This document shows positions 27,623-47,580 of a stretch of 57,405 bases of DNA, one piece after another. The number at the start of each line of letters is the position of its first letter. The stretch's first letter is position 1. The translations under genes and the position numbers were made by a program. The notes below the pieces were generated by a model. That model was not told the DNA's origin. It did not search any database and saw only the letters and a program-made list of their open reading frames with translations. The DNA comes from a virus (Duplodnaviria > Heunggongvirae > Uroviricota > Caudoviricetes). The stretch lies in IMG/VR virus record IMGVR_UViG_648028025_000017; one strand, written 5' to 3'.

Positions 27623-28999
27623 TCATACGTCAGCCCCTTGTGCATATCGTCTGCCACGCGAAGCAGGTGCATTTGATGCTGTGCAAATCTGTCTGGCTTC
27701 ATCCTGGTCACATGCAACAAAGTGTCCGTTACAGAACCGCTGGTAAACCGTACCAAGTGGGCCAAACCGGTTTTTCGTCACAATGATTTCAGCAAATGGT
27801 GCGGCGCTACTGTTCTCGTCATATACCGCTTCCCGATAGAGCATGATGATTGAGTCTGCGTCCTGCTCAATGCTTCCTGAATCACGCAAATCTGCGTTTG
27901 TCGGGCGTTTGTTTGGTCGCTTCTCAACATCGCGCGAAAGCTGACTTAGGGAGATAACAGGCGTTTTCAGGTCTTTCGCCATCGCCTTCAGGCTTCCTGA
28001 GATGTGAGCAATTGCGAGGTCGTTGCGGTCTGCTTTCGGCTTCTCAATCAGGCCAAGATAATCCGCCATGATGAGTGACAGGTTTGGATTTTCCTGTTTG
28101 TTCCGCTCTGCGATTGAGCGAATTTCTTCTACCGATAACCGCGAGGCATCGACTACCCATACATCCAAATCTGCAAGCTGACTCATGCCGTTAGCAACAC
28201 GCGCCCAGCCTTCGTCATCCATCGATGCAGGATTTCGCAGTACGCTAACCGACATCCTCCCGGCGTTGGCAATGCTCCGCTCTGCAATCTGCAATGCGCT
28301 CATTTCCATCGAGAAAATCAACACTCCGCGCCGGACGTCAGAACCAGGAATAACGCGGCTTGCAACACCTTCGGCAATCTTCAGCGCCAGTTCGGTTTTC
28401 CCCATACCAGGACGAGCGGCGATAATCACCAGGTCTTCCGCGTTCATCCCTCCGGTGATGGCGTCAAGTTCTTCGATTCCGGTCTTCAGGGTATCTGACT
28501 CTTCTCCGTTCCTCAGACGCCTGTCAAGCGTGTCAGTGTAGTCAGTGATGATTTCCCCTAACCGTACAGGTTTAACCTCGTCACGGGGCTTTCTGATGGC
28601 TGAGAGACGCTTTACAAGCTCGTCCATCGCCTGACTCGATGTATCGATGGTTCCGCTCTGAATTGGTTCACGCATTTCGTCCATGATTTCCAGCACCAGA
28701 CGGCGGTGATAGTTATCCGCGACCATTCCGGCATATCCCTTCAGGTTTGCGGCACTCGGGCAGTTTTTGCTGGTCATCAGGATTGACGTGAAATGCTCCT
28801 CTCCGCACGCCTCGGCAACCATCAGCGCGTCGATTAGGTTTCTGTTTCTCGCCTGCTTACGGATAACTTCGAAGGCTTTCCGGTAGAGCGGAATTGAAAA
28901 CGCTTCCGGCTCCAGCGTTGCCAGAACGTCGCTGGCGGTTGGTGTTAATCCACCAATCAGCAAGCCACCGATAACGCTCGCTTCGATATCCTGTCTCAT
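27623..28999 (-). CDS. DnaB-type replicative helicase (P22 gp12-like)
   Basis: 458 aa; Walker [16 protein letters not shown]; RecA-like C-terminal domain; 4-bp overlap with initiator gene. Confidence 0.9.
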
Positions 29000-29817
29000 G
29001 CAATCCCCCTGTCTGCAAACTTCCCTTCCCGAACTCCCGTTAACGAGTCTTCCCTCAGCAGGTAATCAAAATCTGCCGTCCAGCCCGTGTCGTTGTCTCC
29101 GAAGTAAAACGGCTTGGCCTGATGCACAAACGCCCTGACATACGCTCTGAAACCGTCCACGTTTGGCGTTTTCAGTTGCGGGATGATTTTCTTCAGGCGG
29201 CGTTTTCGTTTCTCGTTGACCGCAACAGCGTGTGGAAGTCTGTCACCGACTTCGGTGTTGTAGGCGTTCAGGAAGGATTCGTAGTCGATTCGTTCTGCCT
29301 TGCGACGTTCAGGTTTAACCTGCCCATCGCCGCCCCCGTTAGGGGGTAAGGGGGTATTTGTATTTATTGTCTTTTGTATATTGTCTTTTGTGTTTAGCTG
29401 ACTTGGCTTATACCCATTAGCCGACTCGGCTAATGTTTTATTAGCTGTTTTAGCTAATGTTAAGCTGTCCTGGCTAATCCACTGAGAAACCACCTTGTTC
29501 ACTCCGATTTTCACGCCATCAGCAATGAGGAATTTACGCTCAATAAGCTGGCGCTTGGCAGCGCAAACATGAGTGTGATGAATACCTGTCATGGCTGCTA
29601 TCTGCGTGTTTGTGAGTCGATCCATCGGCTTATTGAATCCGTATGTCTTGCGCATGATAGCGAGCATCACCTTCATCTGCCGGACGGTTAAATCAGCCAT
29701 CAGCAGACTGTCGATAATCTCGTTAGCAACGCGCATGAAACCATCTTCGGTATCTGCCACGCGATGCTCCACGACCTCCAGTTGAGGCCTGTAATCAGCT
29801 AACTTAACGACGCCCAT
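28996..29817 (-). CDS. Replication initiation protein (lambda O / P22 gp18-like)
   Basis: 273 aa; iteron-like repeats inside the gene (ori). Confidence 0.8.
29340..29480. repeat. Putative replication origin: iterons plus AT-rich segment inside initiator gene
   Basis: G-rich CCGCCCCCGTTAGGGGGTAAGGGGG, direct repeat TATTGTCTTTTGT x2 (29365-29377, 29379-29391), GCTAAT motif x3. Confidence 0.5.
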
Positions 29818-30000: not shown

Positions 30001-30279
30001 TCAGGCCTCAAAACTGTTGCCGCAGTCTTGAGGCTTTTCTTTTGTCAGCACCATGGCTACTTTCTTTGCCAGCTCCGCTAATTCCTCGTCTTCAACACCC
30101 CACTCCAGCACAGCCAGAAGCATGGCCATCTTTGGGATAAAGCTGTCTTTCCATCGCGAAATTTGCGATTCATTGATCCCTAATGCATCAGCAACCTTTC
30201 GCTGACCACGTACAGCAATTCGATTCAGGATGTTGCTTGTAATTGCATTCGCTTTCTTGCGAGTACTTGTAAGTTCCAT
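30001..30279 (-). CDS. cII: CII transcriptional activator
   Basis: Start at MELTSTRKK with AAGGAAATA RBS; VADALGINESQISRWKDSFIPKMAMLLAVLEWGV close to recalled lambda CII. Confidence 0.8.
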   Translation of the reverse strand: MELTSTRKKANAITSNILNRIAVRGQRKVADALGINESQISRWKDSFIPKMAMLLAVLEWGVEDEELAELAKKVAMVLTKEKPQDCGNSFEA

Positions 30280-30336
30280 ATGTAAGTATTTCCTTAACAA
30301 ATAAGAAGTTATGCGCATCAACTTATGCGCGTTGTA

Positions 30337-30381
30337 TTCCCGCATTTCGGCGGGAATGAGGACCATGACTGTTAAAGAGCG
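30337..30381 (-). promoter_or_regulatory. nutR-like site (boxA CGCTCTTTAACA + boxB hairpin)
   Basis: On minus strand: CGCTCTTTAACA ... TCCCGCCGAAATGCGGGA, identical to the site upstream of N. Confidence 0.6.
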
Positions 30382-30388
30382 GTGTTAC

Positions 30389-30613
30389 TTATGCTGCCTG
30401 ATTCGGTTTTGGAAACAGGTGTGGCAAATCGGGGCGAATTTCGTAAGCCTTGATCTGCCCTCCAGTGGCGTTAACGATGGCGGTAACTTTCTCTGGAGAG
30501 ACCAACCCGCCTTTCAGCCATTTGTGTACTGCTGGCTGCGTTACACCACACTTGTCGGCAAGGCGCTTTTGGCTACCGACAATTTTCAAGGCTCGTTGAA
30601 TTACTAAATTCAT
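30389..30613 (-). CDS. cro: Cro-like repressor
   Basis: 74 aa from internal Met (AAGAGG RBS); HTH QKRLADKCGVTQPAVHKWLKG; divergent from cI across operators. Confidence 0.7.
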   Translation of the reverse strand: MNLVIQRALKIVGSQKRLADKCGVTQPAVHKWLKGGLVSPEKVTAIVNATGGQIKAYEIRPDLPHLFPKPNQAA

Positions 30614-30635
30614 GAGCATACCTCTTGTGGTCATT

Positions 30636-30712
30636 ACTTATAACCAAAGATAACTCAAGTTATAAAAAATAGCAATAACCTTTGTTATTTTACTTTGGAT
30701 AACCGTAGTTAT
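30636..30712. promoter_or_regulatory. OR operator region (three ATAAC-N4-GTTAT palindromes) with divergent promoters
   Basis: ATAACTCAAGTTAT (30650-30663), ATAACCTTTGTTAT (30675-30688), ATAACCGTAGTTAT (30699-30712). Confidence 0.7.
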
Positions 30713-30724
30713 AGATTTGTGGGT

Positions 30725-31432
30725 ATGAAAACATTCGCAGAAAGACTAAATGCAGCCATGAGCTCAGCAGGGGTATCACAATCACAGCTTGCTGACATGG
30801 TTGGAATATCTCAGCCAGCCATACAGAAGATGTCGTCCGGTAAAACAAACGGATCTCGCAAGATGGTTGAATTAGCCAATGCTTTAAAAGTGCGCCCTGA
30901 ATGGCTTAGTTCTGGTATTGGTGAAATGAGGGATGGTGCACATGAAGAACCATCCAATGTCCGTGATTCATCTTTAAAAGCTGTGGTATGGGAAGACATT
31001 AAAAGAAACGATGACGAGTTTGTTGCGTTGCCTCTTCTTAACGTTTCGCTTTCAGCTGGAAGCGGTAGCTGCGAGCTAGAGGAATCATCGGAGTTCTCTT
31101 TGGTTTTCAGAAAGCACTATCTGAAAAAGATGGGAGTATCTGAAAGATCAGCCAAGCTAGTTAGGGTTGTAGGGCAAAGCATGGAACCAACGCTTCACGA
31201 TGGCGATGTTGTTGGTGTTAACACGCAAGATACCACAATCAGAGATGGTAAAACCTACGCTATTTGCCAGTCTGATTTGTTACGAGTAAAAACATTAATC
31301 GCCACCCCTACATCGGTGATAATCAGATCAATAAATCGCGAAGAGTACCCGGATGAAGTAATGGATAGAGATGAATTTCATGAAACCGTAAGGATTATTG
31401 GCAGAGTATTCTGGTCGTCTCATAGTTGGTAA
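30725..31432 (+). CDS. cI: CI repressor (HTH + LexA/S24 peptidase-like C-terminal domain)
   Basis: HTH GVSQSQLADMVGISQPAIQKM; C-terminal GQSMEPTLHDGDVVGV autocleavage motif; start moved to Met downstream of operators. Confidence 0.85.
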   Translation: MKTFAERLNAAMSSAGVSQSQLADMVGISQPAIQKMSSGKTNGSRKMVELANALKVRPEWLSSGIGEMRDGAHEEPSNVRDSSLKAVVWEDIKRNDDEFVALPLLNVSLSAGSGSCELEESSEFSLVFRKHYLKKMGVSERSAKLVRVVGQSMEPTLHDGDVVGVNTQDTTIRDGKTYAICQSDLLRVKTLIATPTSVIIRSINREEYPDEVMDRDEFHETVRIIGRVFWSSHSW

Positions 31433-31472
31433 CCGATAATCAGAAGAAGACTTACGGAAGTGCGGAGGGATA

Positions 31473-31769
31473 ATGGAATTTCTGATAGTTTTTGTTGTTG
31501 TTTTGGTCATCATTCTTTTTGTTTTGCTAAGCATTAGTAAAAAGCTATCTCAAATGATTGAACATAGCTCTAATCGTGCAAAAGAAGAAGAGCATATAAT
31601 TGATATAAAAGAGATTCTCTCTGATATAAAAATCACATTAGATGAAATAAAATACACAACAGATCTAATTGAACAGTATAAAATACCAACCCCAAACGAG
31701 AGAAAAGCAATAGATCAATATCGTATTGACTTAGAAATCGACGAAATGCTAAGCAAAAGAAAAGACTAA
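31473..31769 (+). CDS. Small single-pass membrane protein, cI-linked moron (rex/sieB position)
   Basis: 98 aa; N-terminal TM FLIVFVVVLVIILFVLLSI; very AT-rich; 40 bp downstream of cI, followed by terminator. Confidence 0.6.
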   Translation: MEFLIVFVVVLVIILFVLLSISKKLSQMIEHSSNRAKEEEHIIDIKEILSDIKITLDEIKYTTDLIEQYKIPTPNERKAIDQYRIDLEIDEMLSKRKD

Positions 31770-31774
31770 AAACA

Positions 31775-31800
31775 CCCGGCCTCAGCGCCGGGTTTTCTTT
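31775..31800 (+). terminator. Intrinsic terminator ending the cI-moron transcript
   Basis: CCCGGC-CTCAGC-GCCGGG hairpin followed by TTTTCTTT. Confidence 0.7.
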
Positions 31801-31922
31801 TCCTGCCGTTCACCACCCAATCAACCATCCTCATCATAGACAAGCATCAAGCCAAAGGTAACACCTTCACCCCGCACGCAAGCCCTCAAACACCAATCAA
31901 TCAGCAACATTTACAAAAATAA

Positions 31923-32005
31923 AATACCTTTGTTATCCATCACTTATAACCTATTCACCATAAAATATAAATTAGGTTATTGACCACACCTATAACCTAA
32001 GTTAT
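31923..32005. promoter_or_regulatory. OL operator region / pL
   Basis: AATACCTTTGTTAT (31923-31936), ATAAATTAGGTTAT (31967-31980), ATAACCTAAGTTAT (31992-32005), related to OR half-sites. Confidence 0.6.
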
Positions 32006-32054
32006 CTTTAAGCCATCAGCAGGACGCTGGAAGCCAAACGGAACAGATTGGCAG

Positions 32055-32097
32055 GCTCTTTAACATTGATGGGATTGTCCCGCCGAAATGCGGGAAC
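32055..32097 (+). promoter_or_regulatory. nutL-like site (boxA + boxB)
   Basis: GCTCTTTAACA followed by CCCGCCGAAATGCGGG hairpin, upstream of N. Confidence 0.6.
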
Positions 32098-32202
32098 CAA
32101 AGAGTAGTTGGCTTTGGGGTGACGTGAAGTGCAGCTGCAAGACGGCAACCGGAAGATAAGCACGCGGCGCGTCACCGCCAAAGTCAATCATCGGAGGTCA
32201 AC

Positions 32203-32475
32203 ATGACAGTAGTCATTACATATCTGGCTGACGATAACGCCAGAAATCGCCGCAGAGCACGCAGACAGGCTCAACGTGAACAGGCAATGCAAGAACAGCG
32301 ATTGGCACGAAAAATTGCGCTAAAGCTCTCTGGTTGCGTCAGAGCAGATAAAGCAGCATCACTCGGAAGCCTTCGCTGCAAGAAGGCAGATGAATGCAGT
32401 GGAAGTATTTGCCTGCCAAACGTAGCCATTTACGCGGCAGGCTACCGGAAATCAAAACAACTGACGGCGAGGTAA
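32203..32475 (+). CDS. N: N-like antitermination protein with arginine-rich motif
   Basis: 90 aa; DNARNRRRARRQAQREQ ARM; GGAGG RBS; first gene after pL/nutL. Confidence 0.65.
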   Translation: MTVVITYLADDNARNRRRARRQAQREQAMQEQRLARKIALKLSGCVRADKAASLGSLRCKKADECSGSICLPNVAIYAAGYRKSKQLTAR

Positions 32476-32477
32476 TT

Positions 32478-32840
32478 ATGGGTCAGGAAGAAAAATATGA
32501 GCTTAAAAAGCTCATTGGAGAAGACGCCATAGAAGAAATTGCAGCATTAACAACAGCTATAAAGAATATTAGGTATGCGCTAAATACGCTTATCTCCTCA
32601 TGCGACAAAAATAGCAGGGAATTTTTGATACTTGGCGCAGCTCTAGGAATAGTTGATGCGGCAACGCTTCACCTAATTACTCATGACGATATTCTTATTG
32701 AGCCGTATGAAACATTACTGCTTGTCAGGCAAAAAATGGCTGATGCCGCAGCAAATGGAGACCTTCAACTTTACATCGACTTAAGGAAAGTATTAAGGCG
32801 AATGGTCAAAACTGAAGGAGATATCCCCCTGACAAAGTAA
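32478..32840 (+). CDS. Hypothetical protein
   Basis: Start MGQEEKYELKK with GAGG RBS, 2 nt after N stop. Confidence 0.5.
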   Translation: MGQEEKYELKKLIGEDAIEEIAALTTAIKNIRYALNTLISSCDKNSREFLILGAALGIVDAATLHLITHDDILIEPYETLLLVRQKMADAAANGDLQLYIDLRKVLRRMVKTEGDIPLTK

Positions 32841-32870: not shown

Positions 32871-33365
32871 TTAATAATTTGTCAGCGGCGGTACATATAC
32901 AGGCTTAGGGTCTGGCGCTCTATACATCCGGTATTCATTCTTACAGCGAGGACATGAATGCACAAAGAACCCATTAGATTTTATAGTAACCGTGCTTGGT
33001 TGAAGTATCGATATTTTATGTTCGCCGAAGCAATGTGCACAAAGGTTATGCTGCTGAATAGAAGGATCGGAATGACTCTTAGGTCGATACACGACAGAAC
33101 CACCTTCAGTTGTATGAAGTTCATAATTCTCAGCTTGCACAACAAACATCTTGATTTTTCTATTTTCATCTCGAAGCTTCATTGCGATCTCCTTCTCGGC
33201 CTGATAAAGGCCAGAGAGCTCCGCATTAAGCATCTGTAAGTCAGTTATTCTTTGGTGTAGATCACCAATAGCTTTAGCGATAACAGCATCGTCTCTGGTT
33301 TCTTTTATTGTCTTCAGCAGATCATAAGCCTGTTTCGCGGCAGTTATACCAGATAACACATCCAT
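32871..33365 (-). CDS. Hypothetical coiled-coil / zinc-ribbon protein, oriented against the early-left operon
   Basis: 164 aa; N-terminal coiled coil; C-terminal C-x2-C ... C-x2-C (CAHCFGEH...CPRCKNEY); AT-rich. Confidence 0.6.
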   Translation of the reverse strand: MDVLSGITAAKQAYDLLKTIKETRDDAVIAKAIGDLHQRITDLQMLNAELSGLYQAEKEIAMKLRDENRKIKMFVVQAENYELHTTEGGSVVYRPKSHSDPSIQQHNLCAHCFGEHKISILQPSTVTIKSNGFFVHSCPRCKNEYRMYRAPDPKPVYVPPLTNY

Positions 33366-34179: not shown

Positions 34180-34491
34180 ATGAAATTACGTGTCTGGCAT
34201 ATCCCGCAAGTACCTATGAAACCGTTCATTGCAGAAGTGGCAAGTGTTGAAGAGGGTGTTCGCCTGATGGGCGCACTGGCTGATTATGACGCCTTTCAGT
34301 ATGACAACAACATCAAGCCTGATTACTGCAATGCTAACGGCCTTGAGATGTGGGATGAGAGCCTTACCGATGAAGATTTATCAGAGGTGGGGCTTACTGA
34401 TCGCTGGGTGGATTGGTACAGCGAATGCCAATGTTACGACGACCCACGTAAATATCTCGAAAGCCTGAAAGAAGAAACATCAGCCGCCTAA
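34180..34491 (+). CDS. Hypothetical acidic protein
   Basis: Start MKLRVWHIPQ with GGAGG RBS. Confidence 0.5.
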   Translation: MKLRVWHIPQVPMKPFIAEVASVEEGVRLMGALADYDAFQYDNNIKPDYCNANGLEMWDESLTDEDLSEVGLTDRWVDWYSECQCYDDPRKYLESLKEETSAA

Positions 34492-46366: not shown

Positions 46367-46693
46367 ATGACTAAAAATACACGTTTTTCCCCCGAGGTCC
46401 GTCAACGGGCAGTTCGTATGGTTCTGGAAAGTCAGGGCGAATATGACTCACAATGGGCGGCAATTTGTTCCATTGCCCCAAAGATTGGCTGTACACCAGA
46501 GACTCTGCGTGTGTGGGTTCGTCAGCATGAGCGGGATACCGGGAGTGGTGATGGTGGACTCACCACCGCTGAACGTCAGCGTCTGAAAGAGCTGGAACGT
46601 GAAAATCGTGAACTGCGCCGCAGTAACGATATCCTTCGCCAGGCTTCCGCTTATTTTGCGAAGGCGGAGTTCGACCGCCTCTGGAAAAAATAA
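46367..46693 (+). CDS. IS629-like transposase OrfA
   Basis: 108 aa HTH protein [26 protein letters not shown]. Confidence 0.9.
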
Positions 46694-47580
46694 TGCCGCT
46701 GCTGGATAAGCTGCGTGAGCAGTACGGGGTCGGACCGGTATGCAGTGAACTGCATATTGCCCCGTCAACGTATTACCACTGTCAGCAACAGCGACATCAT
46801 CCTGATAAACGCAGTGCCCGTGCTCAGCGCGATGACTGGCTGAAGAGAGAGATACAGCGCGTATACGATGAAAATCATCAGGTGTACGGTGTGCGTAAAG
46901 TCTGGCGCCAGTTGTTACGCGAAGGTATCAGGGTGGCCAGATGTACAGTGGCGCGCCTCATGGCGGTTATGGGACTTGCCGGTGTTCTCCGGGGTAAAAA
47001 GGTCCGTACTACCGTCAGCCGGAAAGCCGTTTCCGCAGGCGACCGCGTAAACCGTCAGTTCGTGGCAGAACGTCCTGACCAGCTGTGGGTGGCTGATTTT
47101 ACTTACGTCAGCACATGGCAGGGCTTCGTCTGTGTGGCGTTCATCATTGATGTGTTTGCCGGATGTATCGTGGGGTGGCGAGTCTCATCGTCTATGGAAA
47201 CGACATTCGTGCTGGATGCACTGGAGCAGGCGTTGTGGGCCCGTCGGCCGTCCGGCACAGTCCATCACAGTGATAAAGGTTCTCAGTATGTATCACTGGC
47301 CTATACGGAGCGACTAAAAGAAGCAAAACTGCTGGCATCAACAGGGAGTACAGGTGACTCGTATGACAACGCGATGGCGGAGAGCATCAATGGTCTTTAC
47401 AAAGCGGAGGTAATACACCGTAAGAGCTGGAAAAACCGTGCAGAAGTGGAACTGGCCACACTCACGTGGGTGGACTGGTATAACAATCGACGATTGCTGG
47501 GAAGGCTGGGTCATATCCCTCCGGCAGAAGCAGAAAAAGCTTATTATGCTTCCATCAGAAACGATGATCTGGCAGCCTGA
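46693..47580 (+). CDS. IS629-like transposase OrfB (DDE integrase core)
   Basis: 295 aa; HSDKGSQY ... DNAMAESINGLYKAE motifs. Confidence 0.9.
   Translation: MPLLDKLREQYGVGPVCSELHIAPSTYYHCQQQRHHPDKRSARAQRDDWLKREIQRVYDENHQVYGVRKVWRQLLREGIRVARCTVARLMAVMGLAGVLRGKKVRTTVSRKAVSAGDRVNRQFVAERPDQLWVADFTYVSTWQGFVCVAFIIDVFAGCIVGWRVSSSMETTFVLDALEQALWARRPSGTVHHSDKGSQYVSLAYTERLKEAKLLASTGSTGDSYDNAMAESINGLYKAEVIHRKSWKNRAEVELATLTWVDWYNNRRLLGRLGHIPPAEAEKAYYASIRNDDLAA

Follow-up and report, generated by a model that had tools for sequence, protein, structure and literature searches.

The IMG/VR record IMGVR_UViG_648028025_000017, a stretch of 57,405 nucleotides (nt) from a member of the Caudoviricetes to which we refer throughout as the window, carries a lambdoid immunity region in which a short open reading frame (ORF) lies directly behind the repressor gene cI. 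This frame, ORF98 (31473-31769 on the plus strand), consists of 98 codons plus TAA, with its ATG at 31473. ORF98 is a real gene and not a chance ORF, and it is under purifying selection. We consider it very probable that the gene is cargo embedded in the cI operon, expressed in the lysogen and carried in the slot that in phage lambda holds rexAB. Its product belongs to a new and very small protein family, found in a kind of genomic slot that is well known, which specialists would not find surprising, and it is predicted to be a bitopic protein of the inner membrane. The function that we propose for it, defence against or exclusion of other phages, is put forward much more tentatively.

ORF98 and its position behind cI

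As the first-pass annotation of this DNA had proposed, the 98-amino-acid (aa) frame follows the cI stop by 40 nt on the same strand (stop TAA at 31430-31432, gap 31433-31472) and is considerably richer in AT than cI. Its GC content is 0.293 (0.25 at third codon positions), compared with 0.434 for cI and 0.466 for the window as a whole, in which just 1.5% of the 297-nt segments are equally AT-rich; all homologues are more AT-rich than their own cI and flanks. A Shine-Dalgarno sequence, GGAGG, can be read at 31464-31468 (+), 4 nt upstream of the ATG, and GGAG is also present upstream of the homologues in loci L003, L005, L044 and L045. The RefSeq entry for the protein, WP_000394868.1, is that of a hypothetical protein, and phrog_18389, a family of unknown function, is matched from end to end (E = 6.4e-62; residues 1-98 against profile positions 1-98 of 98). 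When ORF98 was compared with its Citrobacter homologues, with which it shares 76-78% amino acid identity, the ratio of nonsynonymous to synonymous substitution (dN/dS) was ~0.15 at a dS of ~0.8, and it was 0.07 in codons 43-98. Fifteen DNA alleles are present across 31 IMG/VR loci, none of them with an internal stop codon and all 31 loci with the frame intact. Two other interpretations of the same DNA were rejected: an overlapping minus-strand ORF (31328-31534 or 31550-31657), because the substitutions match the plus-strand frame, and a type I toxin, because of the excessive length of the protein and its conserved soluble domain.

The intrinsic terminator that the same annotation had placed after the gene is also present. 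It begins 4 nt past the ORF98 stop, with a stem of 7 bp, six of them G-C, around a loop of 6 nt (31774-31793; hairpin energy -13.7 kcal/mol), and continues with TTTTCTTTT. Together with the next 25 nt (31774-31820) it matches the lambda sequence right after rexB at 87% over 47 nt. We aligned the terminator among lambda, SH2026Stx1, a PA28-type phage and a Citrobacter locus, and its stem and T-run are invariant in five phages. The ORF98 terminator is thus homologous to the one that ends the lambda immunity transcript after rexB, and it is from this homology that ORF98 is assigned to the lambda rexAB slot, the stretch from the cI stop to the terminator. The lambda order is cI-rexA-rexB-terminator-OL-nutL-N, and cI, ORF98, PL and N follow one another in the window as their counterparts do in lambda. 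Of the "rex/sieB position" in which the gene had initially been placed, the rex half is thus upheld by the terminator and the gene order, and the sieB half is not, since in lambda sieB is found past N and on the other strand.

The sole DNA common to the window and to Citrobacter-type prophages is a cassette at 31463-31796 (81% over 334 nt by blastn against L003, L005 and L007), in which the match starts 10 nt before the ATG and stops at the terminator, the flanks being unrelated. In SH2026Stx1 (L008 3821-5193) the same slot holds a DUF3024 protein and ORFs of 177 and 44 aa, and in a chicken Escherichia coli strain (L051 3454-3960) it holds soluble proteins of 120 and 42 aa; in both the same terminator follows, and the cI that precedes this other cargo is 93-99% identical to the cI of the window. 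A PA28-type phage has cI, ~130 nt of non-coding DNA and then the same terminator, and hence a slot without cargo. With the terminator the same and cI nearly so while the cargo differs or is absent, the stretch from the cI stop to the terminator is therefore an exchangeable cargo slot. ORF98 had been called a moron, a term that in its strict sense denotes a self-contained unit of deviant composition that brings along a promoter and a terminator. The deviant GC content and the terminator are there and the promoter is not, the cassette beginning 10 nt before the ATG; ORF98 is thus not a classical moron, and is cargo embedded in the cI operon.

Linkage to the repressor is a constant feature of the core of the family. 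Every core member with readable context (profile E < 1e-9) lies directly 3' of an S24 repressor gene on the same strand, and before N wherever the DNA extends that far. The repressors in question are of at least eight types (the window type, with 32 loci, and those of L003, L005/L007, L040, L041, L042/L043, L044 and L045/L046), whose mutual identity ranges from undetectable to 70%. The gap between cI and the ORF98 homologue is 1-54 nt in these relatives, and 1-15 nt in most types, and a hairpin with a T-run is found 3' of nearly all homologues.

No terminator-like site is present between cI and ORF98, and the portable cassette contains no promoter of its own, nor is there room for one outside cI. 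In relatives compared on this point the gene begins 1-23 nt past the cI stop. The only promoter-like match, within the 3' end of cI (TTGGCA, 17 nt, CATAGT at 31398-31426; 9 of 12 positions), was dropped as an independent promoter, because it is not part of the portable cassette and because matches of this quality occur no more often than by chance. PL lies downstream of ORF98 and is directed away from it, and for this reason no lytic promoter is predicted to read the gene. Given that cI is not followed by a terminator, that the cassette is promoterless and that PL points away, ORF98 could hardly be expressed except by read-through from cI, and the anatomy of the locus strongly suggests that the two genes are co-transcribed. 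In the Shiga toxin (Stx) phage Phi24B, the expression of two genes downstream of cI is restricted to the lysogen (PMC3342100).

Protein architecture and family

An N-terminal membrane helix followed by a charged, helical remainder had been anticipated for the product, and both are predicted here. Residues 3-21 have a mean Kyte-Doolittle hydropathy of 3.67 and include one polar residue, and residues 23-98 contain 14 K/R and 18 D/E. AlphaFold2 models the monomer as all-helical, with helices at 2-38, 45-68 and 74-96 (predicted local distance difference test, pLDDT, 82.5; predicted template modelling score, pTM, 0.29). The helix at 42-69 is hydrophobic at 87.5% of its heptad a/d positions versus 30% elsewhere, and helix 74-96 at just 50%. 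The N-terminal flank of the membrane helix in ORF98 is ME, without a positive n-region, and across the family K/R are absent before the helix in 17 of 17 members, with 1-4 K/R within the 15 residues after it. Under the positive-inside rule this pattern predicts an N-terminus outside and a C-terminus in the cytoplasm, and we regard an anchored protein of this N-out/C-in orientation as likely. The topology prediction that had been recommended as a check accordingly returned a single membrane helix with the positive-inside pattern in every member. A cleavable signal peptide was rejected, there being no basic n-region and no AXA site.

The family motif, IKY(T/V)TD(L/I)IE.YK(L/I)P...ER..ID....D.EI, contains four invariant residues (Y69, P72, D81 and E88), all in the predicted cytoplasmic part and all convenient positions for point mutation. 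Mean pairwise identity is 0.49 in residues 69-93, which comprise the turn and the last helix, versus 0.16 in the linker. The membrane helix is aliphatic and poorly conserved in sequence; its hydrophobicity alone is kept, and it has no small-xxx-small motif. This pattern fits a membrane anchor holding a small cytoplasmic binding module, and not a pore-lining helix.

The distinction bears on one possible function. ORF98 could be an abortive-infection effector of the RexB or holin kind, forming a coiled-coil oligomer whose membrane helices would make a depolarizing pore once infection is sensed. It shares its slot with rexB, whose product is reportedly an ion channel (PMC8585504), it combines one membrane helix with a heptad-patterned helix, and its best matches in the PDB are designed helical bundles and barrels, although this resemblance is only compositional. 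We nevertheless find such an effector very unlikely: the membrane helix has the features of a typical anchor, selection is focused on the cytoplasmic motif, and there is neither a RexA-like sensor partner within the cassette nor any homology to RexB.

The family is rare. A word-indexed search of 5.8 billion proteins yielded 11 clusters, from E. coli and Citrobacter, and an exhaustive profile search of 1.84 billion representatives yielded 14 matches, whose clusters comprise 1-3 sequences each, one of them from Yersinia frederiksenii. Two scans of species-representative genomes found no relative, and a metagenome scan found near-identical copies only. Among complete E. coli genomes, 97-98 of 5426 carry the gene, most of them enterohaemorrhagic E. 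coli (EHEC) of O26 or O111; it is also found in pig, chicken and human strains that are not Shiga toxin-producing E. coli (non-STEC), and in 1 of 50,697 phage records. The members, 94-126 aa long, are all built alike, with a membrane helix at the N-terminus and a variable linker leading to the C-terminal motif, and both this architecture and the motif are kept down to 24-35% identity.

The immunity region of the window is 100% identical to that of a prophage of the O26:H11 strain H19, and 99.9% identical to that of the Stx1a-converting phage Stx1a_10051. This phage covers just 59% of positions 20000-44000, and in the six-frame translation of the whole window no B-subunit motif of either Stx1 or Stx2 is present; the prophage of the window may be a mosaic relative that lacks stx.

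The most distant members are located at L047 4001-4342, L048 1229-1570 and L049 4001-4351. One of them follows a gene for a SHOCT-domain protein, and another is found near an acetyltransferase gene in a metagenome-assembled genome. The neighbour in L048 prompted us to consider the C-terminal motif as a relative of SHOCT, which was rejected, as no family member matches SHOCT. One call of 139 aa (P0002) comes from a short contig, and its start is probably wrong. Two members depart from the common form: P0010, a variant of 75 aa with an unrelated N-terminus in place of the membrane helix, and P0005, with a deletion of 5 aa (TDLIE) in helix 2.

These two variants, along with the rarity and AT-richness of the family, could be taken to indicate a neutral or decaying passenger that is kept by its linkage to cI. 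That interpretation is already disfavoured by the selection analysis, with its low dN/dS at substantial dS and its still lower value in the C-terminal part, and is opposed also by the intact frame of all IMG/VR loci, by the persistence of architecture and motif in members so divergent and by the retention of ribosome-binding site and terminator across genera. We hold it to be highly improbable.

Possible functions of ORF98

The slot is the one in which RexAB, Stk, Hex and BstA were discovered, each with a distinct mode of phage exclusion. RexAB, Stk of phage 933W and Hex of phage 434, whose genes share the PRM transcript with cI, are exclusion factors against other phages (PMC3564112). BstA is encoded downstream of cI, in a synteny that is conserved across diverse prophages, and the interval between cI and N is a mosaic hotspot (PMC8585504). 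Because these occupants act in this way, and on the one basis of that analogy, we suggest that ORF98 may be a defence or exclusion factor. To this suggestion, more conditional than co-transcription or the topology, we assign slightly less than even confidence.

In the explanation that we favour, transcription from PRM in the lysogen, or from PRE during establishment, would cross cI and ORF98 and halt at the lambda-type immunity terminator, and synthesis of the ORF98 protein would always accompany that of cI, the lytic promoters having no part in it. The one N-terminal helix would insert in the inner membrane and act as an anchor only, with ~75 residues in the cytoplasm that would comprise the heptad-patterned helix and the conserved helix-turn-helix motif. 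This tethered part might then bind a target on the inner side of the membrane and block a superinfecting heterologous phage, either as its genome enters or in an early step associated with the membrane. The target could be an inner-membrane protein of the host on which incoming phages depend, or a protein that the infecting phage itself makes early.

A comparison with the known occupants of the slot gives both likenesses and differences. ORF98 lies where the abortive-infection genes rexA-rexB lie in lambda, on the same strand as cI and ahead of a homologous terminator, then of OL/PL, nutL and N, and its expression logic is expected to be shared with the lambda genes (PRM and PRE). Both RexB and ORF98 are membrane proteins, the latter by prediction, but RexB has four membrane helices and ORF98 one, and whereas lambda has two genes (279 and 144 aa), ORF98 is a single gene of 98 codons with no separate sensor gene in its cassette. 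Stk of 933W and BstA of Salmonella phage BTP1 are lysogen-expressed abortive-infection proteins, each encoded, as ORF98 is, by a single gene downstream of cI (PMC3564112, PMC8585504). BstA, which localizes at sites of phage DNA replication (PMC8585504), resembles ORF98 in how strikingly its linkage to the repressor locus is conserved. Stk belongs to the eukaryotic-like kinases, and neither Stk nor BstA is described in these sources as a small membrane-anchored protein, unlike ORF98.

Hex of phage 434 is, like ORF98, a single small accessory gene right after cI. It differs in that it overlaps the end of cI and encodes a protein of ~16-17 kDa, while ORF98 is separated from cI by its 40-nt gap, and in that its start, in our reading of the published clone sequence, resembles a secretion signal, compared with the predicted uncleaved anchor of ORF98; no sequence similarity between the two is evident, a statement with no tool comparison behind it. 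Hex not only excludes heterologous phages but also stabilizes the lysogen, lowering spontaneous induction ~30-fold by blocking RecA-mediated cleavage of the repressor (PMC3564112).

ORF98 could likewise stabilize lysogeny, tuning induction or the lysis-lysogeny decision, for example through RecA-stimulated autocleavage of cI or FtsH-dependent turnover of cII. This would explain the constant coupling to a repressor, given the strict adjacency to S24 cI of at least eight types; the frequent gaps of 1-15 nt suggest translational coupling, Hex provides a precedent on the PRM transcript (PMC3564112), and ORF98 would presumably be expressed from PRE as well, when lysogeny is established. However, the C-terminal motif does not change along with the repressor, being ~90% identical between family members whose partner cI proteins share just 21% identity, a membrane tether is not obviously useful against a DNA-bound repressor, the same cI functions with other cargo or with none, and no repressor stands beside the most distant homologues. 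We therefore regard a Hex-like role as distinctly unlikely.

Superinfection exclusion at DNA entry has precedents by both an inner-membrane and a cytoplasmic route. SieA of P22 is a prophage-expressed inner-membrane protein that blocks the entry of phage DNA (PMC10883804), and DicB blocks lambda by way of inner-membrane receptor proteins (PMC6832061). SieA is encoded elsewhere in the P22 genome, whereas ORF98 lies behind cI and has its conserved part on the predicted cytoplasmic side. Other small inner-membrane proteins of superinfection exclusion are T4 Imm, HK97 gp15 and lactococcal Sie2009, and genes of the Sie2009 type adjoin the repressor in the lysogeny module. ORF98 has no homology to proteins of this kind, SieA included. 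The architecture predicted for ORF98 is like that of p16.7 from phi29, which is anchored in the membrane at its N-terminus and continues through a coiled coil to a small helical domain in the cytoplasm at its C-terminus, but phi29 is a virulent Bacillus phage that makes p16.7 early in lytic growth, and ORF98 is a gene of the lysogeny region. Homology between the two was considered and dropped: the match to phrog_6682, the GP16.7-like replication family, is not significant (E = 0.088) and is probably compositional.

In a more specific form of the defence reading, ORF98 would be the founder of a new family of anti-phage proteins, each encoded by a single gene, coupled to a repressor and tethered to the membrane. 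These would act from the cytoplasmic face through the helix-turn-helix motif YK(L/I)P...ER..ID....D.EI, by a mechanism unrelated to those of RexAB, SieA/B, Stk, Hex and BstA, and the gene would shield lysogens of the clinically important EHEC O26/O111 against other phages. We consider this possible but rather doubtful.

Several results weigh against an anti-phage function. The homology search that the first-pass annotation had called for matched phrog_18389 over its full length, and found no counterpart among RexA/B and SieB or in PADLOC, Pfam, NCBIfam and the PDB. Specifically, hhalign gave probabilities of 1.5% against lambda RexB, with no Rex match in PADLOC, PHROGs or Pfam, and of 0.3% against SieB. 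The sole match in PADLOC-DB v2 was to ZorB (E = 0.017), confined to the membrane helix and attributable to noise. Pfam, searched with ORF98 and all 17 family members, returned only sub-threshold matches to DUF5385, DUF4446 and DUF948 that stem from the composition of the membrane helix and coiled coil; NCBIfam returned noise only; and a sequence-profile search of the PDB returned designed coiled coils and sodium-channel helices, again compositional only. Foldseek against BFVD gave no match, and literature searches gave no paper on the ORF98 protein or naming WP_000394868. Moreover, not every occupant of the slot is a defence gene, the alternative cargos found behind this cI are likewise uncharacterized, and a cytoplasmic functional domain may suit a block of injection less well. 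The three most distant representatives (E from 6e-6 to 7e-4; 24-34% identity) keep the motif and have no repressor neighbour. The rarity of the family, with clusters of 1-3 members outside E. coli and so small a fraction of E. coli genomes, also indicates a function that is not widely needed. ORF98 has no recognizable enzyme or DNA-binding domain.

Some of the same observations favour a lysogenic conversion unrelated to phages, in which the tethered protein would alter a membrane function of the host (a transporter, a sensor kinase, FtsH/HflKC or the envelope stress response) to the benefit of the lysogen in the gut or the environment. Many small bitopic proteins regulate membrane proteins, and a simple anchor with a short conserved cytoplasmic motif resembles, as a matter of general knowledge, such small regulators. 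The carriers include pig, chicken and human non-STEC strains in addition to EHEC O26/O111, and the most distant homologues are found outside prophage immunity regions. On the other hand, in lambdoid phages ORF98 is confined to the immunity slot, no homology to a host factor indicates a target, and every functionally studied occupant cited here (RexAB, 933W Stk, 434 Hex and BstA) affects either phages or the stability of the prophage (PMC3564112, PMC8585504). Host-directed conversion is thus, in our view, unlikely, if less so than the pore or the Hex-like role.

As a minimal occupant of the slot, one protein of 98 aa in a sharply bounded cassette, ORF98 is a clean candidate for experiments, and natural strains for comparison exist in which the same cI is followed by other cargo or by none. 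Its carriers include prophages of EHEC O26:H11 and O111:H8, a Stx1a-converting phage among them. Should it exclude phages or tune induction, it would influence which Stx phages gain entry to these pathogens or are released from them; should it have no detectable effect, it would be one more uncharacterized accessory gene of prophages.

Layout of the immunity region and other genes in the window

The features surrounding ORF98 are listed in Table 1. A promoter scan found no consensus PRM in the divergent control region, as expected because PRM is activator-dependent, and the position given for it is a presumed one, taken from the lambda layout. The hairpin tcccgccgaaatgcggga occurs in identical form downstream of PL and downstream of cro (30337-30356, minus strand), and the two copies are presumably the boxB elements of nutL and nutR. 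A search of Rfam over 30200-32600 returned nothing but a chance match (E = 0.77).

Table 1. Features of the immunity region and its surroundings in the window
Feature	Positions	Strand	Evidence or remarks
DnaB-type helicase gene	27623-28999	-	
O-like replication gene	28996-29817	-	
cII	between the O-like and cro-like genes	-	
cro-like repressor gene, first of the rightward lytic operon	30389-30613	-	Pfam YdaS_toxin/HTH_3/P22_Cro, phrog_35; RefSeq coding sequence of strain H19 maps there
Divergent control region (OR, PR, presumed PRM) between cro and cI	30614-30724		Repeated TTATAAC / GTTATAA-type half-sites, read from sequence
cI repressor, 235 aa, helix-turn-helix and S24 autoprotease domain	30725-31432	+	Pfam Peptidase_S24 1.4e-17, HTH_3 7.9e-7; phrog_4; RefSeq coding sequence
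Portable cassette (ribosome-binding site, ORF98 and terminator)	31463-31796	+	blastn versus L003, L005, L007
ORF98, predicted bitopic inner-membrane protein	31473-31769	+	phrog_18389
Predicted transmembrane anchor, codons 3-21	31479-31535	+	
Conserved helix-turn-helix part, predicted cytoplasmic, codons 43-98	31599-31766	+	
Intrinsic terminator	31774-31801	+	Homologous to the lambda terminator after rexB
C-rich non-coding spacer, terminator to OL	31802-31904		GC skew -0.6
OL operators and PL (TTGACC 31980-31985, 17-nt spacer, TATCTT 32003-32008)	31905-32010	+	Promoter scan; homology to PL regions of PA28-type phage and SH2026Stx1
nutL: boxA GCTCTTTAAC 32045-32054, boxB hairpin 32068-32085	32045-32085	+	Read from sequence; related phage records annotate Nut boxA there
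N antiterminator gene, first in the PL operon	32203-32475	+	Pfam N_peptide 1.1e-15, phrog_271 4e-34

The spacer between terminator and OL is nearly base-for-base that of L051, whose cargo differs. In four relatives a convergent ORF of 68-74 aa is found on the minus strand between the immunity terminator and OL (L002 3427-3648, L003 5324-5530, L005 and L007 5324-5548), so that two converging genes share the terminator in these loci; the L002 and L003 copies, scanned against Pfam, gave no match. We considered the spacer of the window as a remnant of this ORF and dropped the idea, as there is no similarity.

Two further genes of the window lie to the right of N. An ORF of 164 aa (32871-33365, minus strand; WP_000382838.1, hypothetical) is located within the early-left region of PL but on the opposite strand, which is the orientation of lambda sieB. 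Its N-terminal half is helical, and it has a CxxC...CxxC pattern near the C-terminus; PADLOC gave only a chance-level match to Cas10 (E = 0.0035) and NCBIfam none. This ORF is a candidate for a second lysogen-expressed gene. An ORF of 103 aa in the PL operon (34180-34491, plus strand) bears the RefSeq name "superinfection exclusion protein" (WP_000776959.1); it has no match in NCBIfam or PADLOC, and the name therefore appears to be based on similarity alone. Finally, an ALIL pseudoknot (Rfam RF01497, 120.9 bits) is present at 46648-46764 on the plus strand, at the start of an ORF of 295 aa (46693-47580), and is the frameshift signal of an insertion sequence of the IS3 family.

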